From positions 1 to 30,085 of the forward strand of contig JABMOW010000074.1 in assembly GCA_013204025.1 (NCBI GenBank): a DNA stretch of 30,085 nucleotides, given 5' to 3'. Of this stretch, positions 3,492-18,681 are shown piece after piece; positions within the stretch are counted from its first letter, which is position 1; each line of letters starts with the position of its first letter. The stretch is from Fidelibacterota bacterium (GTDB lineage Bacteria; Fidelibacterota; Marinisomatia; SCGC-AAA003-L08; JACNLC01). The position numbers were made by a program, and so were the translations under genes. A model generated the notes under the pieces. The model was not told the origin of the DNA, searched no databases, and saw nothing but the letters and a program-made list of their open reading frames with translations.

Positions 3492-3836
3492 TTACATCAA
3501 ATTTCCCAACGGGCCGAGATTGATATTTAAATCTCTATCCGTAAGGTTAAAATGTTTTTTTAGCTCTTCCATTTTCATCTCCAGCTTCATCAGGGTTTCA
3601 CCTAATCTTTCGATTTCTTCTTCCGTTAATGATCCGCCATCAACTCTTCGCATGGCTTGTTTCTCAACTAGTTTACGGATGAGTTCAACGATGGTTAGTA
3701 CTAGTTTTGCCAGTCCTGAATCTGCATTCTCAGGGCTGAGCTCTAGTCTGGATTCTTCTTTGCTTGCTAGTTTTGCCATCTCTTCCGAAATCTCATCAAG
3801 CGAACCGGTATTAAATAGTATTTTATTTTCACTCAT
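3492..3836 (-). CDS. gvpK: Gas vesicle protein GvpK
   Basis: The GvpK-like translation (MSENKILFNTGSLDEISEEMAKLASKE...LAKLVLTIVELIRKLVEKQAMRRVDGG..TEEEIERLGETLMKLEMKMEEL) was recognised by eye. The ATG at 3834-3836 is preferred over the GTG at 3884, which would overlap the upstream gene by 40 nt. Confidence 0.75.
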   Translation of the reverse strand: MSENKILFNTGSLDEISEEMAKLASKEESRLELSPENADSGLAKLVLTIVELIRKLVEKQAMRRVDGGSLTEEEIERLGETLMKLEMKMEELKKHFNLTDRDLNINLGPLGNLM

Positions 3837-3844
3837 CGTACTGA

Positions 3845-4594
3845 TTATTTTATTGTGATATCTACAAAATTGTAGGGAGGCCACTGACCTGTTAAGACAA
3901 ATTTTAGCCCGGTGTATTGGATTTGTAATTCTTTAACTGCCTGAATTAATCCTTCTTTTTCATTCTTTTTCAGTAAAATAACTACATCGATAATAGTTGT
4001 TTCAGTTACCATTTTTTTAAATCTGTGAATTGAGTTCAATTGCGCTAGATGCGTTGTAATATTTTGAATAATTGCATCAATATGTGCTAACAGCGACTCT
4101 TCAAACCGGTGCTCTTTTAGTTTTTTATAGAGGTATTTACTATAAATTGATTTTTCAATGCCTTGTTCGAGTTCAATTGCAGGTTCAGTTTCTGATTTGT
4201 CTTTAAGTTCTGTCTTTAATTTTTCGGAATCACAGAAAACTTTTAAGCCGTATTCAACCTTATTTTCGACTTTCAGGAGATTGCACTGGATTTCATTATA
4301 GTTTCTTTCCAGCATTTTTTTAGTCGTATCGGTTGATTCCATCACAGAACCATACCGAACTGGAAGCAATGTAAATTGTTGGGCAAGGGTTTCAATTACC
4401 CCTGCATATTCAATTGCACTGGATTTATCAACAATTAAATCAGCTCTATTAACGTCGCTTACTACAGCTGCAATTTCGTCAAGCGTGACTACATATAAGT
4501 CCGTGTTCGATAAACCTTTTATTCCGGCCAACAGAGCATCTAATTTTTTAGTGTTCTTTTTTACGGATACTATGGAATAAATCATCATTTCCAT
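3845..4594 (-). CDS. gvpF: GvpF/GvpL-family gas vesicle assembly protein (paralog 5)
   Basis: The N-terminus reads ..IYSIVS....LYVVTLDEIAAVVSD. The C-terminus has the family hallmark ..VTGQWPPYNFVDITIK. Confidence 0.85.
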   Translation of the reverse strand: MEMMIYSIVSVKKNTKKLDALLAGIKGLSNTDLYVVTLDEIAAVVSDVNRADLIVDKSSAIEYAGVIETLAQQFTLLPVRYGSVMESTDTTKKMLERNYNEIQCNLLKVENKVEYGLKVFCDSEKLKTELKDKSETEPAIELEQGIEKSIYSKYLYKKLKEHRFEESLLAHIDAIIQNITTHLAQLNSIHRFKKMVTETTIIDVVILLKKNEKEGLIQAVKELQIQYTGLKFVLTGQWPPYNFVDITIK

Positions 4595-4596
4595 GA

Positions 4597-4800
4597 CTAA
4601 GTACTTATTGATCTTCCGGACTTTAGTTGCTCCATGGTTTCAACCGAACTTAACATTAATTTTACGCCCAAGTATACCAAATCAATATCTGCTACTGAAA
4701 TTACAATATCACCGGTGAGGATGACACCCTTGTTTAAAACTCTATCGAGTAATTCAAGGATGGTGATATCTTTTGACCGATCAATTACATTGTTGTTCAT
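4597..4800 (-). CDS. GvpA-family small hydrophobic protein (GvpM/GvpJ-like)
   Basis: The core ILELLDRVLNKGVILTGDIVISVADIDLVYLGVKLMLSSVETMEQ parallels the GvpA core [42 protein letters not shown]. Confidence 0.8.
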   Translation of the reverse strand: MNNNVIDRSKDITILELLDRVLNKGVILTGDIVISVADIDLVYLGVKLMLSSVETMEQLKSGRSIST

Positions 4801-5594
4801 TACTGTTTTTCTTTAATGGAGATAAAACTAAATGGCGGCCAAGGTCCGGTTGCTTCAATAATAAAGCAGAATTTTTCGTCTTTTTTTATCAGTTTGTCGA
4901 CTGTACTCTTAAAATCATTGACTCTGTTTTTACTTACAAGAAAGGTAGCATTGAGGATCATGGTATTCTCTGTTCCTGTAAATTCTTTCGGGAGCAGGTT
5001 ATTGAGTCGGGTTGATTCGCTCAGATTTTTAAATTCATCATAATATTCCTGTCCATAACTGTTATTAAGTCTGTTCATCTCAGTTTCGATTAGGTCTTCT
5101 TTTTTTCTTTTAAAAAGAAATGCTTTCCCGGGTGAACTTGCCATAATCTTTTTTTCCAGCGTAGCTGTTTCCTCGCTCAATTCGTCAATTTGTTCGCTCA
5201 ACACTTTACGATTACAGTAAATTTTAACCGACCATTCTTCCTTTCCCTGGATATTATGGAAATTTTCGATCAATGAGCTGGAATAATCTGTGATGAATTT
5301 TTTCAAACTGGTTTTAGTTTTATAGATAGTACCAAATTTAAAGGGGATCACAGTACCAGATTCCATAACCTTGCTGATCACCATGATATGCTCCCTCGCG
5401 TTGGATTCCACCCACAAAATATCTGAAATATTCTTTTTGAAGTTTTCTTCGGAGAATTCACTATTAGAAACATATTTAATAATTACATAAAAATTATCGA
5501 TCACAATGGATTTCAAGCCTTTGAACTCCATATTATGATTGAGTTGTGGAGGACTCTTTGTTATGCAATAAAGATATATCAAATCATTTATCAT
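4800..5594 (-). CDS. gvpF: GvpF/GvpL-family gas vesicle assembly protein (paralog 4)
   Basis: The N-terminus reads LIYLYCI..., and the C-terminus ends ..IIEATGPWPPFSFISIKEKQ. It overlaps its neighbours by 1 nt, which suggests translational coupling. Confidence 0.85.
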   Translation of the reverse strand: MINDLIYLYCITKSPPQLNHNMEFKGLKSIVIDNFYVIIKYVSNSEFSEENFKKNISDILWVESNAREHIMVISKVMESGTVIPFKFGTIYKTKTSLKKFITDYSSSLIENFHNIQGKEEWSVKIYCNRKVLSEQIDELSEETATLEKKIMASSPGKAFLFKRKKEDLIETEMNRLNNSYGQEYYDEFKNLSESTRLNNLLPKEFTGTENTMILNATFLVSKNRVNDFKSTVDKLIKKDEKFCFIIEATGPWPPFSFISIKEKQ

Positions 5595-5866
5595 TAATTA
5601 TCCGAACTATCCTTTCCTTCAAAGGAATTTAGTCTTTCGAAAGATGTAATTTCAAGTTTTTCATCTAATTCTACTTTGTAGAATAACCGCACTTGTTTTG
5701 GAGGTAAGTTCATTGATTTTAAGAAAGAATCATTTTCATATACTTCTGAAAAGGAGTTCCATATTTCATTTACTTTTTCAATTTTTATCACCGTTACATC
5801 AGAACAAATGATACTCTCTTTCAGAAACTTAACCACAGCTTTTTTTACATCGATGATATTACTCAT
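5594..5866 (-). CDS. Hypothetical small protein inside the gvp operon (possible uncharacterised gvp accessory protein)
   Basis: An open frame sits in an operon-conserved slot between gvpG and a gvpF/L paralog. The likely start is the internal Met (MSNIIDVKK..), because the longer ORF (to 5917) would overlap gvpG by 26 nt. No motif was recognised. Confidence 0.45.
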   Translation of the reverse strand: MSNIIDVKKAVVKFLKESIICSDVTVIKIEKVNEIWNSFSEVYENDSFLKSMNLPPKQVRLFYKVELDEKLEITSFERLNSFEGKDSSDN

Positions 5867-5891
5867 TTTTATCTCCAGTGAATAATTTGTT

Positions 5892-6119
5892 TCATTTCTC
5901 GGTACTGATATTTTCAAGCAATTGTAATAATTCGTCTTCTCTCTCGTCGTATTCTTCTACGTCAATTTCGTCCATCTCGAACTTCAATTGCAAAGCCATA
6001 AGTCGTTCTTTAATGGCGCCTTCATCAGACATTTCTTTCTCGATTACCTCATTGATTTTATTTCCAATAAAAATAATTCCTTTTAAAGGCGCTAGAAGTA
6101 TGTCATCGATTAAAAACAC
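5892..6119 (-). CDS. gvpG: Gas vesicle protein GvpG-like
   Basis: A 75-aa protein (MFLIDDILLAPLKGIIFIGNKINEVIEKEM...EEYDEREDELLQLLENI) resembling GvpG in size and composition. Its position between gvpF/L genes fits. Confidence 0.65.
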   Translation of the reverse strand: MFLIDDILLAPLKGIIFIGNKINEVIEKEMSDEGAIKERLMALQLKFEMDEIDVEEYDEREDELLQLLENISTEK

Positions 6120-6120
6120 A

Positions 6121-6915
6121 TCAAATTCCTTTCGTGTAAATTGTCAGATTAACAAAATTATATGGAGGCAATGTTCCTACGTATTTGAAGGTCATGAGAT
6201 GACCATATTTTTCATCCAAATTGTTCACCGCTTTGTCAAATGCAGGTTCTGATGTGTTTTTAATAAGGAAGGCGGCATTGAGGATCATCATTTCTCCATA
6301 GTTATCGTTCACCTTGACATCAACCGCATGCGGATTTAATTCAGAGAGAATATTGTTTCGATATGCCTCTCTCTCTTGTTCAAGCGCTTCGGCAACCATT
6401 TCACCAATTTTCATACGTTGATAATGGGTTTTATCTGCTGGCAGGTTCATCAGCTTTTCTTTTAATGACCTGATATCATCATATTTTTCAATGATGCTTT
6501 CATAAATTGCGGCTTCATGGGCAAGTATTTTGAGTCCTAATTCTTTTTTTCCATCCATCGTAATGAGAAGATCGTTGAATTTTTTATAATCCTTTTCGAG
6601 GATTCTCAGAATCCCGGCATCATCGTTGTGTTCTGATATAGTTGAAAAACGGATCGGTAGAACAGTAAACCGCTTCATCACCTCTTCAAGTACCAATTGA
6701 TGGGCGATCATATGAGCTCGTCTGGCCTTATATTGTATGATTGGTGAATTACTTACAACTGCACTGATATCTTTGTAATGGATTCCATAGACCTTATCAG
6801 ATCGATCTCCGATACCAATAGGGCCAAAGTCAATCGAATCTGCGTGCCTTATGATGCCATATATATACTTGCCTTCTTTGGGCGTTTCTTGCATGTTGCT
6901 CATAGTTAACATCAA
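6121..6915 (-). CDS. gvpF: GvpF/GvpL-family gas vesicle assembly protein (paralog 3)
   Basis: The N-terminus reads KYIYGIIRHADSIDFGPIGIG....ISAVVS. The C-terminus ends ..KYVGTLPPYNFVNLTIY. Confidence 0.85.
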   Translation of the reverse strand: MMLTMSNMQETPKEGKYIYGIIRHADSIDFGPIGIGDRSDKVYGIHYKDISAVVSNSPIIQYKARRAHMIAHQLVLEEVMKRFTVLPIRFSTISEHNDDAGILRILEKDYKKFNDLLITMDGKKELGLKILAHEAAIYESIIEKYDDIRSLKEKLMNLPADKTHYQRMKIGEMVAEALEQEREAYRNNILSELNPHAVDVKVNDNYGEMMILNAAFLIKNTSEPAFDKAVNNLDEKYGHLMTFKYVGTLPPYNFVNLTIYTKGI

Positions 6916-6925
6916 ATAAGTTTCA

Positions 6926-7699
6926 TTACAATTCCCACTTTTCGGGAAATATTTTCAGATCTATGAAATTATAAATCGGCAATGGAGCTGTATAAACAAA
7001 GTCGCTTCGGTCCTGGTATTTGATACCAAGATCTGCCATCATGTTATCAAGTTCAATCCCCCTTCCACTGTTCATAAGAATTGCCGTATTCATAAACATA
7101 GCATCTCCACTTGTTTTGTTATGTCTATAATCGAACACCGATCTTCTAAAGGCATCGATAATTTTTTCCGCTTCCACTACTTTCTTTTCAGCCAAAGCAT
7201 GTTCAATCAGTTCTCCGGTTTCAACTATTTTCAGCTTCCTTTTCTCCAGATCAGGCATTTTTTCGATTTTTACCTTGCTATTATGCAATTCAGCGTGTTC
7301 CTTGTCGATCTCCTTGTATATCATACTCATGTCTCTCCAGATTCCCTTTACATTGATTTCCACCTTATTTTCGAACTGCTTGAGCAATTCCATAAACTCG
7401 CTGTATCTGCGGTTAAGCAGGTTGCGAATTTCATCTGGAGTAGCGGCGATGGTACCAAACCTGATGGGGAGCATGCTTTCGAATTCCTTCATCACCGCTT
7501 CTAGAACCTTTTGGTGACTAATAATATTATCTGGGCTTACAACAAACTTGCCAAGCGGATGGTCACTCACCACCATACATAAACCATCGAAACCGATGGT
7601 AGAGACTAGGTCGCATCGCCCCCCAACTCCAATAGGGCCAAAATTGGTGTCATATTTTGTTGATATTATACAATATATATATTTACCATCCCGCTGCAT
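6926..7699 (-). CDS. gvpF: GvpF/GvpL-family gas vesicle assembly protein (paralog 2)
   Basis: The N-terminus reads KYIYCIISTKYDTNFGPIGVGG....LCMVVSD. The C-terminus ends ..VYTAPLPIYNFIDLKIF. Confidence 0.85.
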   Translation of the reverse strand: MQRDGKYIYCIISTKYDTNFGPIGVGGRCDLVSTIGFDGLCMVVSDHPLGKFVVSPDNIISHQKVLEAVMKEFESMLPIRFGTIAATPDEIRNLLNRRYSEFMELLKQFENKVEINVKGIWRDMSMIYKEIDKEHAELHNSKVKIEKMPDLEKRKLKIVETGELIEHALAEKKVVEAEKIIDAFRRSVFDYRHNKTSGDAMFMNTAILMNSGRGIELDNMMADLGIKYQDRSDFVYTAPLPIYNFIDLKIFPEKWEL

Positions 7700-7700
7700 A

Positions 7701-8741
7701 TTACTCCATTATTTTTACTAAAATCAAATTTTCAATTACTTTTTCCTTCGCAAGTGAAATATTATCATCATTTGAAGATTGTCTTATCGCTGCTGAATAA
7801 TTAATCAATGTACGATAGGCCATATTGATCTTGTTAAAGCTTTCTTTATCGCCATTTCTAGGATGCGCATCGGGATGAAATAATTTCGCTTTTTCCAGAT
7901 ACGCCTTTTTAATTTCTGATTCCGTTGTTTCATCCCCGAGTCTAAGCTCTATTATTGCCTGTAACACAATTTCCAGATTTAGCTCATTAACTTCAAGGGT
8001 GTAAAAACTATAACACGGTAGAGGTCCGACTAATTTGAAGTTCAACAAACCCTTGTATTCTTCATCAAGTTGGTCAACTATCTTTTCAAACAAACCCTGA
8101 TTGTTTATATTGATGAGAAACGCAGAGTTGGTTACCATTTCGTCATTCATTACTTGATGCGTTTTGATATCGAGACTGCATTGTGATAATGAATCCAGAA
8201 TATTGAATTCAGTTTTTGTGTTTTTTTCTTTTAATTTTGACTGAACCAACATCCCTATTTTCATCTGGTCAGCCTGCGAAAGTATATCTATTTTTTTCTG
8301 TATTTCATCTCTTAAAGATACGATTTCGGGATGTCCAGAAATTTCTTTAAGAATCTCCGGGAAATTGTCCCATGTGGCTGCCAAGTCAATTTCTGTCAGA
8401 TATTCAGTTTTCTTCAGAGTTGTGATAATTAATTCATAGCCATTGGCAAGTACTTTAATAACCTCTTGCTTTGATCCAACAACCGTATAAAACTTCATAG
8501 GGATAAGAGTGGAGGATCCTTTTAACTGGAGTGCTTCAATCGTTTTTTGATGATGAATCAATAAATACCCAAGCGACTTCTTGTTCAACTGATCAAGTTG
8601 GATATCCTCCGTGTCAGAGACTATAGCCAATATATTTTTAAAGCTGATGGTATAAAGCTCTGAATTTTCCAATAATCTTAACATATCCGTGTTGTGATTT
8701 TCCAACATAATACCGTAGATATAAATTTTATTTGTACTCAT
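7701..8741 (-). CDS. gvpF: GvpF/GvpL-family protein fused to a C-terminal DnaJ-type J-domain (HPD motif)
   Basis: The N-terminal ~255 aa are GvpF/L-like (KIYIYGIM..., ..KLVGPLPCYSFYTLEV). The C-terminal ~70 aa read ..SEIKKAYLEKAKLFHPDAHPRNGDKESFNKINMAYRTLINY, which has the helix II-HPD-helix III arrangement of a J-domain. Confidence 0.85.
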   Translation of the reverse strand: MSTNKIYIYGIMLENHNTDMLRLLENSELYTISFKNILAIVSDTEDIQLDQLNKKSLGYLLIHHQKTIEALQLKGSSTLIPMKFYTVVGSKQEVIKVLANGYELIITTLKKTEYLTEIDLAATWDNFPEILKEISGHPEIVSLRDEIQKKIDILSQADQMKIGMLVQSKLKEKNTKTEFNILDSLSQCSLDIKTHQVMNDEMVTNSAFLININNQGLFEKIVDQLDEEYKGLLNFKLVGPLPCYSFYTLEVNELNLEIVLQAIIELRLGDETTESEIKKAYLEKAKLFHPDAHPRNGDKESFNKINMAYRTLINYSAAIRQSSNDDNISLAKEKVIENLILVKIME

Positions 8742-8752
8742 GCGATGTGATC

Positions 8753-10906
8753 TTATTTCTTCTTTGCGTTTTGTGTTAATACCAGTTCGATCGCTTCTTC
8801 AAAATGTTTCGTCAGGATGATGATTTCTCCGGTAAGTTCAGATGACTTTCTACTTTCTTTTTCTATCAAAGCGCGAATTGCGAGCATGGCTGCTTTTTGG
8901 CAAATAAATTCGATATCTGATCCAGTTAAGCTATCTGTTTTCAGAGCTAGTTTTTTCAGATCTACTTTTTTATCAAGGGGTTTATTCTGGGTATGGATAC
9001 TGAATATTTTTTCCCTGGTAAATAAATCGGGCATAGGCAATTCAAAGATCAGATCGAACCTGCCACTTCTTAGTAAAGCCGGGTCAATTAAATCGATCCT
9101 ATTGGTTGCTGCCAGTACGATTACCCCTTTTAAGTCTTCAATGCCATCCATTTCAGTAAGGAACTGGCCGATCACACGTTCGATAACACCGGAACCGCCA
9201 TTATTGCGTCTGGGGGTAAGGCTGTCTATTTCGTCAAGGAACAAGATGCACGGTGATGCTTGTTTAGCCAATCTGAAGATCTCCCTTACTCCTTTTTCTG
9301 ATTCACCGATATAACGGCTCAAAATCTGTGGACCTTTTACGGAGATAAAATTAACTCCACTTTCACTTGCCAATGCTTTTGCAAGGTAGGTCTTACCTGT
9401 CCCGGGTTTTCCGTGAAGTATAATTCCTTTGGGTGGTTTGGTGGCGGTTTTTTTGAAAAGGTCGGCATATTTCAATGGCCATTCAACGGTTTCCATTAAA
9501 GCATTTTTGATGTCATCCAGACCACCAACATTTTCCCATTTAACATTGGGGATTTCCACAAATACTTCTCTGATGGCCGACGGTTCTACTTCTTTCATCG
9601 CATCAAGAAAATTATCCATGGTTACTTCAAGCGACATTAATAATTCGTATGGGATCTCTGCTATCTCGAAATTGATTTGAGGAAGTATTTTCCGCAAAGC
9701 AGTCATCGCAGCTTCGCGGGCTAAGGCTTCCAAATCCGCTCCCACAAAACCATGGGTGATTTCGGCCAGTTTTTCCATATCTACATCCATCGACAAGGGG
9801 ATACCCCGAGTATGGATATGAAGGATTTCCAGTCTGCCCTTTTTATCAGGAATGGAAATAGAAATTTCTCTATCGAACCGCCCAGGTCGTCTCAAAGCAG
9901 GATCTATGGAATTAGGAATATTGGTCGCGCCAATCACGATGACCTTACCCCTTGATTCCAGTCCGTCCATCAGCGACAACAGTTGAGCGACCACGCGTTT
10001 CTCCACCTGTTTCTCTCCGCCCATTTCTTCTCTCTTGGGCGCAATGGCATCAATTTCATCTATGAAAATAATGGAAGGCGCATGTGCCTGAGCCTCTTCA
10101 AAAATCTTACGGATTCTCCCTTCGCTCTCCCCATAAAATTTCCCCATGATCTCAGGGCCAGAAATGTTGATGAAATAGGCATCCGTTTCATGAGCCACAG
10201 CTCTAACGATGAGCGTTTTTCCGGTTCCCGGAGGACCATAAAGGAAAACTCCTTTGGGTGGCTGAACACCAAGTCGTTCGAAAATCTCAGGATATTTTAG
10301 CGGAAGTTCAATCATTTCTCTGATGCGTTGAACTTGGTTTCCAAGCCCCCCAATGTCCTCGTAGGAAACCTTACTTTTGCGTTTCCCGTCTTGCTTTGCC
10401 AATTCAAGCTGAATAATAGTATTTGGGTGTATTAATACAACGCCCTCGGGATTGATACCGGTTACAGTGTAATCAACTGAACGAGACCCAAACAGGACTG
10501 CTTTAATTCTATCGCCTTTTGTTACCGGAAGACCATTGATCAGCGAGCCAATGTACTTTGTGTCATCGGCTTTGTATAAAGAACCGGTTTTTGTATCAGA
10601 TTTGAGTTTTATTTTTGTCGCCTGGCGGCAAGTTGTTTTAATAATTTTTACTTTTTCATCGATCCCTGCCTGTGCATTTTCCCTGGTGATCCCGTCAATC
10701 TGAATGATACTCATATCTCTGTCATCAGGATAACATGGCATTATTCTTACAGGGGTAGCTCGTTTGCCTTCAATCACAACTACGTCGCCACTTTCCAAGC
10801 CGATCAATTTCATATCTTTTGGATCGATCCTGGCGATGGCTCTTCCAACATCCTTTACCAGGGCTTCTTTAACACGTAATATTATTTCATCTTTGATTTT
10901 TACCAT
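8753..10906 (-). CDS. cdc48: Cdc48/VCP/VAT-like double-ring AAA+ ATPase (N-domain plus D1 plus D2)
   Basis: The N-domain is Cdc48-like ([41 protein letters not shown]). There are two Walker A motifs ([16 protein letters not shown]) and two Walker B motifs ([20 protein letters not shown]). The protein is 717 aa. Confidence 0.9.
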
Positions 10907-10909
10907 GGT

Positions 10910-11830
10910 TTACGGTTTCTTTGGTTGATCTCCAAAAAGATACATACTCAATTTTTTCAATGCTTTCAGCCCTTTGATTTCTTCAGGAAACATGGGTACT
11001 TCAATCATATTCAAATTACTAAATATTTCACTAATCTGGCTCAAATATGGTAATTGGCTCGCCCTTCGCCTTTTACAAAAATCACAATCCTCAGAAACCA
11101 CTACATTGTTTACGATGATCTGTCTCGAAATGATTCCGGATTTACCAAGATCCGCTAATAGTCTGTCCGTTTCTATAATTGCCATCGCTTCGGGGATACA
11201 AACAGGGATAAATTCGCATTTGGAGTTATTTTTCAAGATGTTTTCGATCCTTTTAACCGTTTTTTTAAGGTTGAGTAAAAAGGTGTCTACCTTATCCTGC
11301 TTATATGAACCTGAAAAGCTGGTGACCATATAACGGTATTTCCATCTCATCTTGGCGGCAACTTTTATCCATGCATCCAATAATTTTGGAGATGAAATCA
11401 GTCGCAATGCGTGACCAGTGGGTGCGGTATCCACAACATATTTATCATACTCGCCTTCTTCAATAAAATCAATGATGGTTTTAAAACTCATCACCTCATC
11501 AATGCCGGGTATCGATAAGGTCAGCATCTCGTCGATGTCCTCATTGTCAAGATTTGTAGAAGTTTCCAGAAGTTTTTTAAGCTCGTTATGGTGTGCTGTT
11601 TTGAATACCGAAAGTGCCTCGTCAGCAACCACTTCTATAGCCGACAGGTTGTCTACACCATCAACCTTTACCACATTAAAACCAATTTGTTGTTCGAGAC
11701 AATCCGACACAGAATGAGCCGGATCGGTGGAGATGAGAAGCGTTCTGTGATTTTCAGACAACGCCAGCGCTGTGGTTAAAGCACAACTGGTTTTTCCAAC
11801 GCCACCCTTTCCTCCGAAAATGATGAGCTT
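10910..11830 (-). CDS. Get3/ArsA-family P-loop ATPase with a CxxC motif; the N-terminus and start codon are unresolved
   Basis: The ORF carries the ArsA/Get3 signature VVDTAPTGHALRL and a CDFC (CxxC) motif. The tracked ATG (11761) lies downstream of the P-loop. The frame stays open upstream to the TAG at 11882-11884 and encodes KLIIFGGKGGVGKTSCALTTALALSENHRT, but contains no ATG, GTG or TTG. The 5' end given here is therefore approximate. Confidence 0.8.
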   Translation of the reverse strand, partial: KLIIFGGKGGVGKTSCALTTALALSENHRTLLISTDPAHSVSDCLEQQIGFNVVKVDGVDNLSAIEVVADEALSVFKTAHHNELKKLLETSTNLDNEDIDEMLTLSIPGIDEVMSFKTIIDFIEEGEYDKYVVDTAPTGHALRLISSPKLLDAWIKVAAKMRWKYRYMVTSFSGSYKQDKVDTFLLNLKKTVKRIENILKNNSKCEFIPVCIPEAMAIIETDRLLADLGKSGIISRQIIVNNVVVSEDCDFCKRRRASQLPYLSQISEIFSNLNMIEVPMFPEEIKGLKALKKLSMYLFGDQPKKP

Positions 11831-11868
11831 TAGATCGTCGTTTCCTAATCCGGTAAGGGTCGTGTTTT

Positions 11869-12396
11869 TTATTTTGCTATCCTAATTTCAAGGATTCCAT
11901 TATTAAATTTGTGATTTAGGTTTTTACTTACGACTTTTACCGGAAGAAGCAGCTCTTTGCGGTATGTCCTATTATTGCTGACCGCCGAAATTTCAAGTAT
12001 ATCTTCTTTTAGGTCGATTTTAAGGTCAACTTCCTCTATTCCCGGCATTTCAGCAATGATGACGATCTCATTCTTTTCATCAAATATGTCGGTTATCGGC
12101 TCCCGTTCTTCATCCACTCTTGGTCCTTCGGGTGTTTTTTTTATGTTTCCGAAAGTCTCAACTTGTGGTTCACCTCCAACTGCCGTGTTGACGGTAAAGC
12201 CATAAATGCCTTTCATGCCTTTTTTGATATGATCAAAATTAATCTCACCTTCCTTGCTAATTCCCCCCTTTTCCTCGAGCTTCCCAGCAAGGTCAACTAA
12301 TTTTTCGATGCCTTTGAACAGACCGCCAAGTCCGAAAAGATCAGAATTGGCTTCGCCCTTTTTTTCTTTATTTTTTTCGTTTTCCATTTTAAACAT
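11869..12396 (-). CDS. gvpH: Hsp20/alpha-crystallin-domain protein (GvpH-like)
   Basis: The C-terminal alpha-crystallin domain reads ..ITDIFDEKNEIVIIAEMPGIEEVDLKIDLKEDILEISAV...YRKELLLPVKV....FNNGILEIRIAK. The N-terminus is Gly/Lys-rich. Confidence 0.75.
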   Translation of the reverse strand: MFKMENEKNKEKKGEANSDLFGLGGLFKGIEKLVDLAGKLEEKGGISKEGEINFDHIKKGMKGIYGFTVNTAVGGEPQVETFGNIKKTPEGPRVDEEREPITDIFDEKNEIVIIAEMPGIEEVDLKIDLKEDILEISAVSNNRTYRKELLLPVKVVSKNLNHKFNNGILEIRIAK

Positions 12397-12431
12397 GTTC
12401 CATTTTGTTAACAGATTTAAGGTTTTCTATA

Positions 12432-12731
12432 TTAAGATGGTTTACTGATAGTCTCAAGTTTTTCCAAGCGCGCCTCAATAGTTGACTGTTGCTGCATAAG
12501 CTCTTTTTCCCTGGCTTTCGTGGAAAGGTAGGTGTCTTCCTGCCACCAGTTAATCCCCATCTCCATGGCTTTATCCACCGAAGCCACCAGTAGCCTAATT
12601 TTAATGGTTAACAGGTCTATATCTGCTATCTGAATTTTTATATCACCAGCAATAACGATTCCTTTATCGAGAACTCTTTCAAGAATATCGGCAAGACCAG
12701 TGGCGTTAATTGAATGCATGGGTTCTGGCAT
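12432..12731 (-). CDS. gvpJ: GvpJ-like (GvpA family with a C-terminal extension)
   Basis: The GvpA-like core LADILERVLDKGIVIAGDIKIQIADIDLLTIKIRLLVASVDKAMEMG is followed by a ~35-aa charged, helical tail. Confidence 0.8.
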   Translation of the reverse strand: MPEPMHSINATGLADILERVLDKGIVIAGDIKIQIADIDLLTIKIRLLVASVDKAMEMGINWWQEDTYLSTKAREKELMQQQSTIEARLEKLETISKPS

Positions 12732-12748
12732 AGTGTATTCTTTTCTTG

Positions 12749-13063
12749 TTAATAATCTATCGACATAGTTTTAAAATCAGATTTCACTTCTTCCTGGTTC
12801 TTTTTATTTGACTTCTTAGTTTCAGGAATGCATATCTGTTTTGCTTTTTCGTTAGTAAATACTTGGATTTCCTTTAACCGGTTTTGAATAATCTCAAGTC
12901 TTTGTAAAATCCTGATCTCTTCACTTTGCAAACGGCTTCTTTCTTTTTCGAAGAGATACAGATTTATGAACTCTGAATCTTCCTTATTTGGAATACCGGA
13001 TTTGGCAGCATTTTTCATTGATTTAATGCTTTGAAGTCCTTTTATTGCACTTGAAATTGGCAT
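12749..13063 (-). CDS. Hypothetical coiled-coil protein inside the gvp operon
   Basis: A 104-aa ORF is tightly packed between gvpN and gvpJ. It is charged and helical (..EKERSRLQSEEIRILQRLEIIQNRLKEIQ..). No motif was recognised. Confidence 0.5.
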   Translation of the reverse strand: MPISSAIKGLQSIKSMKNAAKSGIPNKEDSEFINLYLFEKERSRLQSEEIRILQRLEIIQNRLKEIQVFTNEKAKQICIPETKKSNKKNQEEVKSDFKTMSIDY

Positions 13064-13075
13064 AATATTTCCGAT

Positions 13076-14020
13076 TTATTGAGGGTTTGATTTATTAGGT
13101 TTTAGAGTATTTTGATTTATTAATTCATCAACGATTAATTTCACCCTTTCCTGATTGGTTTTTGAGCCAATCCGGCTGGTTTCGGAAGTGAGAATATCCT
13201 GACAAATTTTTCGGAATAGATCTTTTGATTTTGATGGTGTTGTATTTAAAGTTGCCAGTGTTTTTGCAATCATGATGGAACCACGAATAGTCGGATCAAA
13301 TTCAGTTTTCCCTGACTCGCGTAAACCCCTGACAATTTTAACAATTATTTCAGTATCCTTTAGCGAAAGGTCGGATTTTGCCTTGGTAATCTGCAATTCG
13401 GTTTCAAAATCGAAATGATCGAGATCCATGGTAACCATCCTGTCGCGAAGAGCGTCCTGGGTTCGGTTAACCCCGGCATATTCTTCAGGATTTGACGTAA
13501 AGATTGCGCGAAATTCGGGATGCACCTTCATGTAATAATCCTCTTCGTTTGTAGCTGATGTACTCAGCATTCTCTCTTGAAGTATTGGTAGAAGGATATT
13601 ATTTGCTTCCGGGCGCGATCGGGTAAATTCGTCATAAATAAGGGTAAACCCGTTTTTAACAGCGATAGTCAAACGGTTATTCACCCACTGCTTTGACATA
13701 TTCTCTTCATACTTATGAACAGTATGAATAAACTTATCATCCAATTTTTTATATTTATACCCCTGTTCGCTACCAACTAAATCAGAAGTTTTATATTCGG
13801 CATCACCATGTATAATGACCGACGGTCTGCCTATTTTACTTGCCAGATGCATGGCGACTGTTGTTTTTCCGGTTCCCGATGGACCCCTGAAATGAACTGG
13901 GAATCCCGCTTTTATATAGGTTAGGCCACGGGCGGTAATGTCTTTTATATAATCAGTTTCTACAAAATTCGACATCGGTTTCAGCTCAAGTACGGTATTC
14001 ATTTCATTGTTATTGCTCAT
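13076..14020 (-). CDS. gvpN: Gas vesicle AAA+ ATPase GvpN
   Basis: The Walker A reads FRGPSGTGKTTVAMHLA. The size (314 aa) and single-AAA layout are typical of GvpN, and the genomic context fits. Confidence 0.9.
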   Translation of the reverse strand: MSNNNEMNTVLELKPMSNFVETDYIKDITARGLTYIKAGFPVHFRGPSGTGKTTVAMHLASKIGRPSVIIHGDAEYKTSDLVGSEQGYKYKKLDDKFIHTVHKYEENMSKQWVNNRLTIAVKNGFTLIYDEFTRSRPEANNILLPILQERMLSTSATNEEDYYMKVHPEFRAIFTSNPEEYAGVNRTQDALRDRMVTMDLDHFDFETELQITKAKSDLSLKDTEIIVKIVRGLRESGKTEFDPTIRGSIMIAKTLATLNTTPSKSKDLFRKICQDILTSETSRIGSKTNQERVKLIVDELINQNTLKPNKSNPQ

Positions 14021-14071
14021 GGTAGATGTTGTTGACCTCTTTCTTAGCAGGATATTATTTCTTGTTAATTA

Positions 14072-14260
14072 TTACATAAATTCTTGGTTGGACAATTGTT
14101 CAACTGTGCTTTTCCAGATGTCCCTTGCCTCTTCAATTTCTTTTGTTATCTGTTCCTTTGCAAGTAAATAAGCTTTTTTCTTGGCTTTAAACCGGATTAA
14201 TGCTTCTTGTCTTTTCAGTAAATTTTTCCTGATATTATTTACGGCATTATTCAATGTCAA
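14072..14260 (-). CDS. Hypothetical small helical protein (62 aa), translationally coupled to the zinc-finger gene
   Basis: There is a 4-nt ATGA overlap with the upstream ORF. The protein is basic and helical. No motif was recognised. Confidence 0.45.
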   Translation of the reverse strand: MTLNNAVNNIRKNLLKRQEALIRFKAKKKAYLLAKEQITKEIEEARDIWKSTVEQLSNQEFM

Positions 14261-14574
14261 TTACCTTTATATCCCTTACCACTACAACGTGTACAGGGCA
14301 AGCCATCGCTCTCTTTTCCATTTCCTTTGCATTTCGTACATTTTGTATTGCTCTCACAATTATTGCTCCCTTTCCCCCGACAAACTATGCACGGAACCCT
14401 GGCTCCAAGCGGGTTTCTGCCTGTACCCAAACAAAAAACGCATGTAACTGTCGACTCCCCTGCTTCAACCTGTCTTGTACCATCACAAACCAGACAAACT
14501 GACATCGGCGACAGTAAATCGAAAGGGTCTTTTCCGGTTCCACTACAATATGCGCATTTGATTACTTTTTTCAT
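14257..14574 (-). CDS. Stand-alone DnaJ-type cysteine-rich zinc-finger protein (6x CxxCxGxG)
   Basis: Six repeats are present: CAYCSGTG, CLVCDGTR, CVFCLGTG, CIVCRGKG, CTKCKGNG and CTRCSGKG. The protein has no J-domain and no other domain. Confidence 0.8.
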   Translation of the reverse strand: MKKVIKCAYCSGTGKDPFDLLSPMSVCLVCDGTRQVEAGESTVTCVFCLGTGRNPLGARVPCIVCRGKGSNNCESNTKCTKCKGNGKESDGLPCTRCSGKGYKGN

Positions 14575-14668
14575 GGTTTATGCTTTTTTCATAGTTTATA
14601 TATTTGAATGGATGGAAATTGCGGAGCCGATGTAACCAGTTTCATCGACTCCGCTTATGACCTGAATA

Positions 14669-16024
14669 TTATTTTAGCGGAAAGTAAATATTTTCAACTT
14701 TTTGGACTTTCCCTGCATTCAACAAGATTTTAGCTATAAATCCAAGTTTCATTCTGGTTTCTCCAAGGGGTTTTTCCATTTCCGAAATTTTCACACCTTT
14801 GGGATGTTTGTTGATATAATCAAGTATCTTATTTTCCAAAGTTTTCGGACTTGTTGGTTCTGGAGTGTTAACCAGGGGTTTAGGTTTAGCTGGAGTTTCA
14901 TTTGTTGCCATGAGAACTACGGGGTTTGGTTTGGTTTCAACAGGGATTTCCTTTGTTGGCATTGCTGCCACAGGCGGTTTTGGTTTAGCCGGAGTTTCCT
15001 CTGTTGCCATGAGAACTACGGGGTTTGGTTTGGTTTCAACAGGAGTTTCCTGAGTTTCCATTGCAGCCACAGGCACTTTTGGTTTGGTTTCTGCCGGAGT
15101 TTCCTTTTTTGCCTGATCCTTTACTACTTGCTTAGGCGATATAATAATGCCCATTTTTCTTATTTGAGATATAGAGTCTTGCATATTTTTCCATGTTGCA
15201 GTAGCCTCTCCTCTGTCTTTTGATAGATAACCAAGCATTCCATTAGTATATTTCTGAATTCCATTTACTTCATTACGAATTCCTTTAATAGCCCCATGTA
15301 TCCCGGTCATGATTGACCTGTATCCGCTAAGTCTTTCTGCTTCTCCAGTATCAAGGTCTTTTCTCAACTTTTGAGCCATTTGTTGGTTTTCTGTACTTAT
15401 TTCAGACAATTTTTTTTGAAACCCATTCAACAGGGTTTTGGTATATTCAACTCTTTCAGTCAGATTTTTACTTAATTCTGCTCTAAGCTCATCCGTCATT
15501 TCCATATGCTCATTCTCAAATCTTTTGAGCATATCGTTGGTGTTTTTGAAAATACTCAAAACCTCGTCGTTGATACTTTTAATATCATCGTTGATATTTT
15601 TCATGAGCGTACCAAATTCCTTCATCCGATTTTTTTCATTCCCCAATCTGTCAGCTTTTCCTTGTGCAAAAGATTTATTTAATTCGTCTGCCATTTGTTC
15701 TCTATTGGCAGCGAATTCATTGATCATATTTAAGGTGCAAGTTTGAATTGTCTTTACATCTTTCTGAATGGATGTGATCGTGCTATGGATATTCGTCATT
15801 AATTCATTGTAGGTGTTCAGGCGTTCTTTTTCATCACCTGCTAGGCCTTTTTTTAAGGCCATAGCATTGGCATTTATAACACTGGTCATTTTCTGGTGAT
15901 CTTTTCGAAAACCATCGAGGGTTTTCTGTACATCGCTTACAAGATCTTCATTTTCCTTGATTCGCTGTTTAAATGAAGCAAGTATGTCTTCACTCAAATT
16001 TTTCATTTCTGATGCTAATCCCAT
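14669..16024 (-). CDS. Repeat-rich helical protein, candidate GvpC-like gas-vesicle shell/scaffold protein, with a C-terminal winged-helix-like domain
   Basis: It contains ~60-aa degenerate helical repeats built around (D/G)x(K/A)(E/D)RL(N/S)xY(N/R)x(L/I)MT(N/G)IH(S/G)xI(T/K)xI(Q/R)x(D/E)V(K/N)xIQ, written with slashes for alternatives. Two and a half tandem 33-aa Pro/Lys-rich repeats follow (ETKPNPVVLMATEETPAKPKPPVAAM..). The C-terminal ~60 aa (..KILDYINKHPKGVKISEMEKPLGETRMKLGFIAKILLNAGKV) look like a winged helix. Confidence 0.7.
   Translation of the reverse strand: MGLASEMKNLSEDILASFKQRIKENEDLVSDVQKTLDGFRKDHQKMTSVINANAMALKKGLAGDEKERLNTYNELMTNIHSTITSIQKDVKTIQTCTLNMINEFAANREQMADELNKSFAQGKADRLGNEKNRMKEFGTLMKNINDDIKSINDEVLSIFKNTNDMLKRFENEHMEMTDELRAELSKNLTERVEYTKTLLNGFQKKLSEISTENQQMAQKLRKDLDTGEAERLSGYRSIMTGIHGAIKGIRNEVNGIQKYTNGMLGYLSKDRGEATATWKNMQDSISQIRKMGIIISPKQVVKDQAKKETPAETKPKVPVAAMETQETPVETKPNPVVLMATEETPAKPKPPVAAMPTKEIPVETKPNPVVLMATNETPAKPKPLVNTPEPTSPKTLENKILDYINKHPKGVKISEMEKPLGETRMKLGFIAKILLNAGKVQKVENIYFPLK
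14874..15094. repeat. 99-bp tandem repeat (x2.3) inside the CDS, encoding 33-aa Pro/Lys-rich units
   Basis: Units at 14874-14972 and 14973-15071 are nearly identical. A partial third unit follows. Confidence 0.8.
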
Positions 16025-16064
16025 TTTTTACTCCTATTTGTAAATAAATGTTTGTTTACTTTTG

Positions 16065-16667
16065 TTAGTTGATTTCTTTAATGATTTGATCTTTAATCGT
16101 TTTAATATCCTGAACCATAATGTCTTCGCCCCTTTTAAGTAAGCTTTCAAAGCATTCCGTCATTCGGTAGTGCATTTTCTGAAATTCTATAAAAGTCTTC
16201 ATGACTGATTCTTTGCTCATTTCCTGTTGTATTGAGATCTGAGAAAGTTGCTCTTTGATGATAGTAACTTTTCCGTTGGCGTCCGGTGACGTATTTATAT
16301 CCAACATGTTTTTCTTTAACGACTGGGCAGCTTCTTTCTGAACTTCGATAAAGCTTAAAAACTGTTCCTCAGCCTCTTTTTCCTTTGCGTCGAGTACGTC
16401 AAGAATCCCCGACATTATAATATTGTAATCTTTTTTACGCAGAGAACCATTTTTTGCCATGGTTTCACAAAGCTTGGAATTTAATATGTCTCTTTCCTTT
16501 TTTAGATCATTTAAGGAATTATGGACATTATCGAAAAGGAGGTGGGACGATTCCGCAATATACTCTGATGATTGGAAAGCAGTTTGAATTTTTTCTACCC
16601 TGGCCTCATATGAAGTTATAATGTTGTTAATAACGCTATTTATATTCAATTTAGGGAAAGTATCCAT
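16065..16667 (-). CDS. Helical protein paralogous to the repeat unit of the 451-aa protein (second GvpC-like candidate), directly downstream of gvpA
   Basis: ..SLRKKDYNIIMSGILDVLDAKEKE.. parallels ..ERLSGYRSIMTGIHGAIKGIRNEV.. The protein is 200 aa and mostly helical. Confidence 0.65.
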   Translation of the reverse strand: MDTFPKLNINSVINNIITSYEARVEKIQTAFQSSEYIAESSHLLFDNVHNSLNDLKKERDILNSKLCETMAKNGSLRKKDYNIIMSGILDVLDAKEKEAEEQFLSFIEVQKEAAQSLKKNMLDINTSPDANGKVTIIKEQLSQISIQQEMSKESVMKTFIEFQKMHYRMTECFESLLKRGEDIMVQDIKTIKDQIIKEIN

Positions 16668-16820
16668 TATTATATTATTTTCGTTATGATTGTACTTTTA
16701 GAGATTTTGGAATTTCTGGTAGTGAAAGTGATAATCTTGGTAAAACATGCTTTTGGAGAATTAACCTGAAAGAACCTGAAAGGACGTTTTAGCAAGAATC
16801 ACTATTTAACTACAAAAGCC

Positions 16821-17027
16821 TTATGCGGCTTTCGCGGTCAATCCTATTGCTTCGGCATACTTCAGGTATGTTTCAACAGATGCAACTACTATTCTTGCTT
16901 CGATTGCAAGAAGTTCGATACCTACTAATGAAACTCTAACCCATGCATCGACTACGACACCCTTATCAAGGATTCGGTCGATAACCTCTACGAGGCTGGA
17001 TGATCCGATGGTTTTTTCTACAGCCAT
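16821..17027 (-). CDS. gvpA: Major gas vesicle structural protein GvpA
   Basis: The sequence [62 protein letters not shown] is canonical for GvpA. A strong SD (AAGGAG) lies 7 nt upstream of the ATG. Confidence 0.95.
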
Positions 17028-17099: not shown

Positions 17100-17117
17100 T
17101 GGCAATGATAATGCCGT
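17100..17117 (-). promoter_or_regulatory. Putative sigma-54 (-24/-12) promoter for gvpA
   Basis: The minus strand reads cGGCAttatcaTTGCc, i.e. GG-N10-GC with GGCA and TTGC elements. It lies about 75 nt upstream of the gvpA ATG. A sigma-54 enhancer-binding-protein gene is the next gene upstream. Confidence 0.45.
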
Positions 17118-17283: not shown

Positions 17284-18681
17284 TTACTTTTCGCTTTTAC
17301 AAATGGTGATGTCGTACTTTTTCATTTTTCGGATGAGGGCATCGCGAGTTATTCCAAGTTCATCAGCTGTTGCTTTTTGATTATATTTGCAGTTCTTTAA
17401 TACTTTTCGAATTGTTTTAATCTCTTGAATTCTCAGATTGGTTGAATCAACACGATCCTCTGATGAGGAGATATTATGCGGTTTTACCGGAAAGTCATTT
17501 ACCCGGAGTACGTTGCTTTTGCAAAGGATAATGGCTCTCTCAGTCATATTTTTCAATTCCCTGACATTTCCAGGAAAATCATATTTTACTAGTGCAGTAA
17601 TAGCTTCATTATCAAGCCGCATGCTAGGTTTATTAAATTGTGTTGCATAGAAATCAACAAAATGGATCAACAGGGGTTTGATGTCTTCAGGCCTATCCCT
17701 AAGTGCCGGGATATGTATATGTAGGGTATTGAGTCGGTGAAGCAAATCAAGCCTGAATTCTTTTTTCTCTACACTTTTTTGAATATCATGGTTTGTGGCA
17801 GAAATGATTCGGAAATCAGTCTTAATCGGTTTTGTTTCTCCCACCCTAGTGATCACTTTTTCTTCGGTGGCACGAAGAATTTTCGCCTGCAGATTAAAAG
17901 GCATGTCGGCAATTTCATCAAGGAACAAGGTTCCCTGATTACACACTTCAAAAAAGCCCATCTTATCGGAAATGGCACCGGTAAATGATCCTTTTTTATG
18001 GCCAAAAAATTCGCTTTCCAGAAGTGATTCAGTAATGGCACTGCTGTTAACGGCACAAAATATATTGTCTTTTTTTAAGCTTGAAAAATGTATAATTCTG
18101 GCAATATTCTCTTTTCCGGTCCCACTTTCTCCTGTGATCAGCACATTTGCATCTGGGTAATTTGCGGCAGTGATAGCTTGTTCGAATACCTCAAGAATCT
18201 GTGGGCTGACACCAATAAATTGCCGGTCGATTTTTTCTTCGAGGGTTTTTGAAATTAATGAGTTTTTTTCTTCCATCTGCTTCAATCTTCTTTGCATCTG
18301 AAGAAATTTTTGAGTACGCTTAATTGCAATCTGAATGTCGATATGCCTGAAAGGTTTACGCAAATAATCGAATGCTCCAAGCCTCATGGCTTTGATCACT
18401 GTATCCATATCGCCGTGAGCCGAAACGATGATAACCTCCATGGCAGGGAATTGAATTTTTACATCTTTTAAAATATCCAGGCCATTTATACCCGGCAACC
18501 GCACATCAAGGATGAGAAGGTCAATGTTATGACTTTTTAATAATTTTTGCGCCTCCTGCTCAGTATTTGCCTCAAATGCCACAAAGCCCGAATTCTGAAA
18601 TAATTCATGCAATTCTTCAGTAAATTGTTTTTCATCGTCCAGGATCAGGATCTCAAGTTTGTGTTGATTTTCCATACTCAT
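17284..18681 (-). CDS. Sigma-54-dependent response regulator (NtrC family: REC, AAA+ sigma-54 activator, Fis-type HTH)
   Basis: The REC domain has the Asp in LILDVRLPGINGLD. The Walker A reads GESGTGKE. A GSFTGA variant of the GAFTGA loop is present. The C-terminal HTH reads ..ATADELGITRDALIRKMKKY. It overlaps the kinase gene by 4 nt. Confidence 0.9.
   Translation of the reverse strand: MSMENQHKLEILILDDEKQFTEELHELFQNSGFVAFEANTEQEAQKLLKSHNIDLLILDVRLPGINGLDILKDVKIQFPAMEVIIVSAHGDMDTVIKAMRLGAFDYLRKPFRHIDIQIAIKRTQKFLQMQRRLKQMEEKNSLISKTLEEKIDRQFIGVSPQILEVFEQAITAANYPDANVLITGESGTGKENIARIIHFSSLKKDNIFCAVNSSAITESLLESEFFGHKKGSFTGAISDKMGFFEVCNQGTLFLDEIADMPFNLQAKILRATEEKVITRVGETKPIKTDFRIISATNHDIQKSVEKKEFRLDLLHRLNTLHIHIPALRDRPEDIKPLLIHFVDFYATQFNKPSMRLDNEAITALVKYDFPGNVRELKNMTERAIILCKSNVLRVNDFPVKPHNISSSEDRVDSTNLRIQEIKTIRKVLKNCKYNQKATADELGITRDALIRKMKKYDITICKSEK

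Follow-up and report, generated by a model that had tools for sequence, protein, structure and literature searches.

Current models of gas-vesicle formation recognize GvpF and GvpG as the sole chaperones and GvpN as the ATPase (PMC11445434). More broadly, reviews and a 2024 interaction study describe GvpF, GvpG and GvpH as chaperone-like, with GvpF acting as a chaperone of GvpA and GvpH preventing the aggregation of GvpM, and GvpN is the only ATPase discussed (PMC9501494, PMC6107691, PMC11445434). An open question is how the extremely hydrophobic GvpA stays soluble, is delivered and enters the growing gas-filled shell. In this work, we analysed a stretch of 30,085 nucleotides (nt) from a Fidelibacterota bacterium (assembly GCA_013204025.1, contig JABMOW010000074.1, positions 1 to 30,085; hereafter the window), which harbours a gas-vesicle (gvp) operon that also encodes a Cdc48-type unfoldase, a Get3-type ATPase, an Hsp20 protein, a GvpF/L protein fused to a J-domain and a stand-alone DnaJ-type zinc-finger protein.

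Clusters of the same kind have been reported before. Castillo & Saier (2010, PMC2963123) found that the gvp operons of Polaribacter irgensii, Pelodictyon luteolum, Geobacter uraniireducens, Anabaena/Nostoc and an acidobacterium contain arsA homologues and hsp20, for whose products they proposed an energising or chaperone role. These ArsA homologues were stated to be two-domain proteins of ~600 amino acids (aa), whereas the protein in the window and those of all related loci are single-domain, ~317-aa, Get3-like proteins with a CxxC motif. Cdc48, the J-domain fusion and the zinc-finger protein are not mentioned in that study, and we found no publication connecting Cdc48, Get3, a J-domain or a DnaJ zinc finger with gas vesicles in the openly searchable full-text literature, where the sole 'Cdc48' in a gas-vesicle paper is a contaminant of nickel-nitrilotriacetic acid (Ni-NTA) purification (PMC6107691). 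A first-pass annotation, made by a model from the DNA letters alone, could not say whether the combination had been described. No description of Cdc48, the J-domain fusion or the zinc finger came up in the literature searched, but ArsA and Hsp20 were already published in 2010, which makes the five-part set largely, not wholly, undescribed. The same annotation had held that canonical models use GvpN as their only ATPase, in agreement with the publications cited above.

The characterised gas-vesicle systems, namely Halobacterium p-vac, Anabaena, Bacillus megaterium and Serratia, have the core genes gvpA, gvpN, gvpF/L, gvpG, gvpJ/M/S and gvpK in common with the window. In contrast, the publications consulted on these systems feature no Cdc48, Get3-type ATPase, J-domain or DnaJ-type zinc finger, and the window carries five GvpF/L genes.

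Five proteostasis genes in a gas-vesicle operon

As delineated from the listing of open reading frames (ORFs) and from Pfam and NCBIfam scans, a single packed gvp operon of ~13.5 kb occupies positions 3492-17027 of the minus strand, and operons of this type are widespread in bacteria of the Fibrobacteres-Chlorobi-Bacteroidetes (FCB) group. Next to gvpA, the genes gvpN, gvpF/L, gvpG, gvpJ/M and gvpK lie on one strand, each scoring above its Pfam cutoff. The first-pass annotation had announced a complete canonical set, and Pfam indeed recovers gvpA, gvpN, gvpJ, gvpG, gvpK, a 67-aa GvpA-family gene and five GvpF/L genes, the J-domain fusion included. It had also described a tightly packed same-strand array with overlaps of 1-4 nt. 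Packing and orientation stand, with intergenic gaps of 1-35 nt at most junctions, but real overlaps of 1-4 nt occur at three junctions only: between the zinc-finger gene and the 62-aa ORF (orf62), between the GvpF/L gene at 4800-5594 and the 67-aa GvpA-family gene, and between the 107-aa ORF and that same GvpF/L gene. The five proteostasis genes are the following:

8753-10906, minus strand: Cdc48/VAT-type double-ring AAA+ unfoldase, 717 aa (TIGR01243, 904 bits; cutoff 802.65)
10910-11863, minus strand: single-domain Get3/TRC40-type ArsA-family ATPase, ~317 aa (TIGR00345, 260 bits, cutoff 135; ArsA_ATPase, 231.7 bits)
11869-12396, minus strand: Hsp20/alpha-crystallin protein, 175 aa (Pfam HSP20, 24.7 bits; cutoff 20.8)
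7701-8741, minus strand: GvpF/L::J-domain fusion, 346 aa, J-domain C-terminal (GvpL_GvpF, 151 bits; DnaJ, 41.5 bits, cutoff 27.8)
14257-14574, minus strand: stand-alone DnaJ-type zinc-finger protein, 105 aa, six CxxCxGxG motifs (DnaJ_CXXCXGXG, PF00684, 25.5 bits; below the cutoff of 32.7)

Four of these identities had been proposed from the letters and are borne out by the profile scores: the Cdc48/VAT-type double AAA+ protein, the Get3-type rather than arsenite-pump ATPase, the Hsp20 protein, and the GvpF/L paralogue with a C-terminal J-domain, whose gene lies just outside the segment to which the annotation was attached. As for the fifth, the zinc finger with six CxxCxGxG motifs, the motifs are present but the window protein itself scores below the PF00684 cutoff, which orthologues from other loci exceed (42.1 bits in L122 and 43.7 bits in L145).

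The Cdc48 protein comprises CDC48_N (85 bits), CDC48_2 (39.9 bits) and two AAA domains, the same N-D1-D2 architecture as archaeal VAT/Cdc48 and eukaryotic p97. Its best match in the PDB is Thermoplasma VAT (5g4f, E 6e-224), followed by p97. Both rings carry the expected motifs, GPPGTGKT, IIFIDEID, the pore loop GKFYGES and RRPGRFDR in D1, and GKPGTGKT, ILFLDEID, the pore loop SRYIGES and LRSGRFD in D2, and the pore loops of both are aromatic as in VAT. Among 77 orthologues, the Walker A and B motifs, the arginine fingers and the aromatic pore loops of both rings are near-invariant, and the N domain is the least conserved part. We infer that the protein works as an ATP-driven unfolding hexamer. 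It differs from its archaeal and eukaryotic counterparts by its bacterial host, by belonging to a separate clade with 50-56% identity to the nearest others, and by its C-terminus, which reads TQNAKKK in the window and KQNATKK in relatives and thus lacks the HbYX proteasome-docking tail; no proteasome partner of this Cdc48 is evident. Genome annotations label the gene 'CDC48 family AAA ATPase'. As they name the gene and nothing more, the protein has been visible in databases, yet uninterpreted.

The Get3-type protein has the deviant Walker A motif GKGGVGKT and the switch II motif DTAPTGH. It aligns over its full length with Methanocaldococcus jannaschii Get3 (3ug6, E 5.5e-53), and also with 3zq6 and fungal Get3. 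Its CDFC motif falls on the zinc-binding CxxC of these proteins (CDFC in M. jannaschii, CEFC in Methanothermobacter thermautotrophicus, CEQC or CPQC in fungi), and in the sequence alignment the helical client-binding region is collinear with that of archaeal Get3, with few gaps. An ArsA arsenite pump was considered and rejected: the protein is a single domain of ~317 aa and not a tandem of ~580 aa, it scores 123 bits against a TIGR04291 cutoff of 650, and Escherichia coli ArsA aligns over its N-terminal half only. No arsB, arsD or arsR gene is present in the window.

Walker A, DTAPTGH, CxxC and full-length collinearity are thus shared with Get3/TRC40. The setting is different, as the operon that contains the gene serves a protein organelle of the cytoplasm, and neither a Get1/2-like receptor nor a tail-anchored client is seen in the cluster. 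Inspection of the translations by eye brought up no Gvp protein anchored in the membrane by its C-terminus. The sole membrane protein, of 195 aa (2731-3318), was tried as a partner and rejected since it is unconserved in relatives. The targeting role that the first-pass annotation had assigned to the Get3-like protein is therefore unsupported, with no tail-anchored client or membrane receptor evident.

At the 5' end of the Get3 gene, an ACG (11861-11863, minus strand) takes the place of the ATG found in 67 of 72 relatives, and the P-loop lies upstream of the first ATG, GTG or TTG (11761). One relative, L046, has an isoleucine codon (ATA/ATT/ATC) at the aligned position. The ACG either is a start-codon variant, from which initiation would be weak or non-canonical, or stems from an error of the assembly. 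A fusion of Hsp20 with Get3, or a frameshift between them, was rejected because relatives have a separate, ATG-initiated gene right after the Hsp20 stop codon.

The Hsp20 protein scores 131 bits with the NCBIfam archaeal Hsp20 model, below its cutoff of 140, and its best PDB match is 4rzk (E 7.6e-14). It ends at profile position 87 of 102 with GILEIRIAK, the last alpha-crystallin strand, and thus has no IXI/V tail. Its N-terminal ~100 residues are highly conserved according to the conservation profile.

In the GvpF/L::J fusion, the J-domain of the window protein has the HPD motif, as do 72 of 73 close orthologues. All fusions examined from more distant clades, meaning loci whose Cdc48 is less than 80% identical to that of the window, have it too. 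The J-domain would be expected to recruit and stimulate the Hsp70 of the host; the window contains no dnaK gene. The extreme C-terminus of the fusion (7701-7730) is a short conserved hydrophobic strand, LILVKIK, with FFLKIK, WLVVKP and VIVIKK in other clades. This strand could dock in the beta4/beta8 groove of the tail-less small heat-shock protein (sHsp), Hsp20, whose C-terminus is encoded at 11869-11900, or on the Cdc48 N domain.

The zinc-finger protein resembles BSD2 and Anti-TRAP, which likewise have CxxCxGxG knuckles without a J-domain, and there are weak matches to Anti-TRAP and, in the case of the L145 orthologue, to BSD2_CRD. Plant BSD2 is a stand-alone DnaJ-type zinc-finger assembly chaperone for Rubisco. 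The gvp protein differs in having six motifs instead of four, hence presumably three zinc sites, and it is grouped with these proteins by likeness only. All six motifs are kept in 51 orthologues. The copy number of the gene varies in L028, L148 and L149.

Conservation of the cluster and phylogeny of its Cdc48

Scanning one genome per species for Cdc48 yielded 465 relatives, and the best 80 (80-90% identical) were compared with their flanks by tblastn, using all window proteins. Among the matches listed in the Cdc48 homology search, identity was at least 84% throughout and all belonged to the same clade. In 80/80 of these reference-genome loci, Cdc48 lies in the same syntenic gvp cluster, with a shared order of gvpN, a gene of unassigned family, gvpJ, Hsp20, ArsA, Cdc48, GvpF/L::J and GvpF/L. 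The hosts include Bacteroidales, Prolixibacteraceae and Lentimicrobiaceae, represented by metagenome-assembled genomes (MAGs), the cultured gas-vacuolate Polaribacter filamentus, Ignavibacteria and Chlorobiaceae. Local variations occur as well: an extra set of GvpF/L, GvpJ/S and GvpK genes is inserted between the 104-aa gene and gvpJ in some relatives (L014, L033, L037, L040, L044, L150 and L157), and two to three tandem gvpA copies are found in L005, L024 and L028.

Median identities to the window proteins are 98% for GvpA, 92% for GvpN, 87% for Cdc48, 80% for Hsp20, 77% for Get3, 66% for the zinc finger, 56% for the J-domain fusion and 47% for the most divergent GvpF/L paralogue (3845-4594). 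With its 87%, Cdc48 ranks among the operon products under the strongest constraint, and the wide spread of these values disfavours a single recent transfer.

We extended the comparison to metagenomes, using a Dadabacteria Cdc48 as the query, and binned the 80 further loci according to the identity of their Cdc48 to that of the window. Linkage to gvp genes was found in 0/28 loci at 56% identity or less, 5/9 at 56-60%, 16/17 at 60-70%, 8/8 at 70-80% and 18/18 above 80%, that is, in 42/43 loci with a Cdc48 at least 60% identical. The nearest clade never linked to gvp genes is that of Dadabacteria, in the lowest bin (51-55% identical). The clade at 75% identity includes Polaribacter irgensii 23-P (EAR13304.1), and the only named member of the 60-70% clade, L151, comes from Deltaproteobacteria/Thermodesulfobacteriota MAGs.

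The gvp layout of the 60-70% clade is a different one with the same parts, in the order zinc finger, gvpN, GvpF/L, Hsp20, Cdc48, GvpF/L::J, a second zinc finger and a mini-Hsp20, without Get3; the 104-aa, 62-aa and 107-aa genes were undetected by tblastn in this clade. A Poribacteria locus (Cdc48 59% identical) likewise has the zinc finger, GvpF/L::J, Hsp20 and Cdc48 among gvp genes and no Get3. The Get3-type gene is thus restricted to the FCB subtype and missing from the more divergent Cdc48-containing gvp clusters, and the conserved core therefore consists of the zinc finger, Hsp20, Cdc48 and GvpF/L::J. The first-pass annotation had taken all these genes to be dedicated to gas vesicles. The gvp linkage in 80/80 genome loci and 42/43 metagenome loci upholds this view, with Get3 confined to the FCB subtype. 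Altogether, the gene neighbourhoods show the proteostasis genes to be conserved members of gvp clusters in several phyla.

In an all-against-all search of representatives, the identity of other Cdc48 clusters did not exceed about 50-56%; the 50% cluster to which the clade itself belongs probably has a more distant sequence as its representative. The nearest outside Cdc48s are archaeal (Altiarchaeum, Asgard, haloarchaea, Bathyarchaeota and Thermoplasmatota) or belong to a Dadabacteria/Thermodesulfobacteriota group. When 121 Cdc48 sequences were arranged in a neighbour-joining tree, the 15 linked to gvp genes all fell in one clade, together with only two other tips, an acidobacteriotal sequence with adjoining Hsp20 and GvpF/L-like genes and a sequence related to that of Poribacteria. 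This clade has a Methanoperedens/Euryarchaeota clade as its sister. In this Methanoperedens-type clade (L112-L115), gvp genes lie beside Cdc48 in 2/4 contigs, and the Cdc48 cluster of L115 bears Euryarchaeota and Candidatus Methanoperedens names. In L114 (9989-19700) and L115 (9977-21000), Cdc48 is next to a divergently oriented gvp cluster that includes Hsp20. The archaeal link of the gvp-Cdc48 loci is weak, and we regard it as a lead only.

Proposed roles and rival explanations

Given this conservation, the proteostasis genes very probably act in gas-vesicle formation or maintenance. As a more specific reading, we propose that their products may form a client-specific chaperone relay for the quality control and assembly of the very hydrophobic GvpA-family shell proteins, to which we assign a probability of about 0.55. 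The first-pass annotation had conceived a similar pathway of holdase, targeting ATPase, Hsp70-recruiting J-domain and unfoldase, which is likewise conjectural. In such a relay, the zinc-finger protein and the tail-less Hsp20 would serve as ATP-independent holdases. The GvpF/L::J fusion would bind a GvpA-, GvpJ- or GvpM-type client through its GvpF/L body. In systems that have been studied, GvpF binds GvpA, and GvpL binds GvpJ and GvpM. The HPD-containing J-domain would then load host DnaK onto the GvpA-family client, and the Cdc48 hexamer would thread and unfold off-pathway aggregates or mis-inserted subunits, returning monomers to the pool; alternatively, Cdc48 might strip assembly factors off the growing vesicle. 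In the FCB subtype only, the Get3-type dimer would be an ATP-gated carrier of hydrophobic segments that serves soluble clients and not membrane targeting. GvpN would remain the ATPase for vesicle elongation.

The closest functional parallel is the bi-chaperone disaggregation system formed by sHsps, Hsp70 with its J-protein, and the Hsp100 protein ClpB. It follows the same logic of a holdase, an Hsp70-recruiting J-domain and a hexameric threading AAA+ motor. However, the motor of the gvp system is Cdc48 and not ClpB, its J-domain is fused to the client adaptor GvpF/L, and its genes are those of a single organelle.

It is tempting to speculate further that an organelle-specific proteostasis machine exists in several phyla, built around a Cdc48 with archaeal closest relatives and completed by the adaptor-fused J-domain with host Hsp70, the tail-less sHsp, a DnaJ-type finger with three zincs and, in FCB lineages, the Get3-type carrier, that it folds, inserts, proofreads or recycles the shell, and that Methanoperedens-like archaea were possibly the source of both this machine and gvp genes. 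This broader idea is tentative, and we rate its chances at somewhat less than even. If true, the machine would be for prokaryotes what the Hsp70-Get3-p97 network is for eukaryotes, in the service of a protein-walled organelle.

Several points weigh against the relay. To our knowledge, Halobacterium, Anabaena, B. megaterium and Serratia build vesicles without Cdc48, Get3 or the J-domain fusion, and the module is hence not universally required. As for Get3, its gene is absent from the 60-70% Cdc48 clade, no Get1/2-like receptor or tail-anchored substrate was seen, and without a canonical start codon it may be poorly expressed in the window organism. Whole-cluster horizontal transfer could be partly behind the synteny, the Cdc48 tree was built by neighbour-joining and bears no support values, and the order of the steps in the relay is conjecture.

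The main rival is disassembly or turnover, in which Cdc48, Hsp20 and DnaK would extract GvpA from collapsed or surplus vesicles, so that the shell is recycled or the cell switched to sinking. We consider it unlikely, although it draws on the usual activity of Cdc48/p97 enzymes, which typically pull subunits out of stable assemblies, and VAT and p97 are precisely the best PDB matches of the gvp Cdc48. Assembled GvpA shells are extremely stable, and a dedicated removal system goes unmentioned in reviews (PMC9501494, PMC11445434). The sensory control suggested by the NtrC-type regulator and multi-PAS kinase described below would also suit such a switch. Nevertheless, the genes lie in the middle of a biogenesis operon and would be co-expressed with gvpA, gvpN and gvpF/L, which is unusual for a function that solely opposes assembly. 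The partner to which the J-domain is joined, GvpF/L, is itself an assembly factor, and the sequence features fit assembly quality control equally well.

More doubtful is a regulatory function, whereby Cdc48 and its partners would unfold or inactivate a transcription or assembly regulator, or recycle the GvpF/L-GvpJ/M nucleation complex that seeds vesicles. There is a precedent for the former in haloarchaeal GvpD, a nucleoside triphosphate-binding protein whose presence leads to the degradation of the activator GvpE (PMC9501494), but no homology to GvpD or GvpE is found here. As for the latter, five GvpF/L paralogues, one of them directly after Cdc48 in nearly all loci, fit a segregase acting on GvpF/L complexes, whereas the presence of two holdase-type proteins, Hsp20 and the zinc finger, fits the bulk handling of hydrophobic clients better than it does a regulatory switch.

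Finally, a general stress island of archaeal flavour (Hsp20 and Cdc48, with or without Get3) that hitch-hiked into an ancestral gvp cluster and has no vesicle role is highly improbable: even if archaeal families are the best matches of Cdc48, of the Get3-type ATPase and of Hsp20, and hsp20 and an AAA+ gene are, as we assume, heat-shock co-regulated neighbours in Pyrococcus, the arrangement is kept in 80/80 and 42/43 loci of several phyla with differing flanks, Cdc48 is constrained like gvpN, all clades have the J-domain on the same polypeptide as a Gvp protein, and the nearest Cdc48 clade never linked to gvp genes, that of Dadabacteria, is just 51-55% identical.

Returning to the chaperone relay, this conserved cluster type offers testable candidates for the handling of GvpA, namely an unfoldase, a J-domain-bearing GvpF/L, two holdase-type proteins and a Get3-like carrier. 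Proteotoxic stress reportedly limits the heterologous expression of gas vesicles as ultrasound reporters (PMC12848028), and co-expression of the module would be an obvious thing to try there. The cluster also provides a defined physiological context for a bacterial Cdc48, and for a Get3-type ATPase without an evident membrane-targeting partner.

Other operon genes, promoter and flanking regulators

The remaining genes of the operon, listed from its 5' end, are the following:

16821-17027, minus strand: gvpA, major shell protein, 68 aa (Pfam Gas_vesicle, 59 bits)
16065-16667, minus strand: 200-aa protein, family unassigned (no Pfam or NCBIfam match; syntenic in 59 loci)
14669-16024, minus strand: 451-aa coiled-coil protein with internal repeats (weak coiled-coil matches; syntenic in 59 loci)
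14072-14260, minus strand: 62-aa conserved ORF, orf62 (4-nt overlap with the zinc-finger gene; no family match; syntenic in 54 loci)
13076-14020, minus strand: gvpN, AAA+ ATPase of the MoxR/AAA_5 type (Pfam AAA_5, 73 bits)
12749-13063, minus strand: 104-aa conserved protein, family unassigned (no family match; syntenic in 65 loci)
12432-12731, minus strand: gvpJ-like GvpA-family protein, 99 aa (Pfam Gas_vesicle, 62 bits)
6926-7699, minus strand: GvpF/L paralogue (Pfam, 167 bits)
6121-6915, minus strand: GvpF/L paralogue (Pfam, 217 bits)
5892-6119, minus strand: gvpG (Pfam GvpG, 68.8 bits)
5594-5917, minus strand: 107-aa small protein, weakly GvpO-like (Pfam GvpO, 18.5 bits, below the cutoff of 25; syntenic in 58 loci)
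4800-5594, minus strand: GvpF/L paralogue (Pfam, 169.5 bits)
4597-4800, minus strand: 67-aa GvpA-family protein, GvpM/S-like (Pfam Gas_vesicle, 56.5 bits)
3845-4594, minus strand: GvpF/L paralogue (Pfam, 153 bits)
3492-3884, minus strand: gvpK (Pfam GvpK, 119 bits)

The true start of gvpK is likely the one that yields a protein of 114 aa (3492-3836), as in the gene call of an identical contig (L001). The 451-aa coiled-coil protein may be a GvpC-like outer scaffold. It contains a Pro/Thr/Lys-rich region encoded by a 99-bp tandem repeat of 2.2 copies (14873-15085); its N-terminal part has about three longer repeats, and the protein evolves fast, with a median identity of 56%.

Upstream of gvpA lie a promoter-like element and genes for signal transduction; two further genes are found elsewhere in the window:

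17102-17116, minus strand: sigma-54-type -24/-12 element, CGGCATTATCATTGC (consensus match, 89 nt upstream of the gvpA start)
17284-18681, minus strand: NtrC-type sigma-54 response regulator (Pfam Response_reg, Sigma54_activat and HTH_8)
18678-22874, minus strand: multi-PAS hybrid kinase, 1398 aa (receiver, about seven PAS domains, HisKA and HATPase), upstream of the gvp operon
24101-26908, minus strand: Reg_prop/Y_Y_Y/HisKA sensor
402-2096: subtilase

In 19/67 related loci, the 260 nt preceding gvpA contain the motif GGCA-N7-TGC, as compared with 1.6% of random 260-nt windows. Across the whole window, the number of sigma-54 motifs is not significant (11 matches, 6 expected), and the case for the -24/-12 element therefore lies solely in its position and in the enrichment upstream of gvpA in relatives. 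The gene for the NtrC-type regulator, which shares a 4-nt overlap with that of the multi-PAS kinase, also precedes gvpA in 35 related loci. The gvp operon is probably under sigma-54 control; gvp regulation in Serratia is likewise of the NtrC/sigma-54 type. Further away, upstream of the sensor gene at 24101-26908, two separate short ORFs of the minus strand (27012-27335 and 27403-27807) encode a partial HATPase_c domain and a receiver domain, and look like fragments of a disrupted hybrid kinase.

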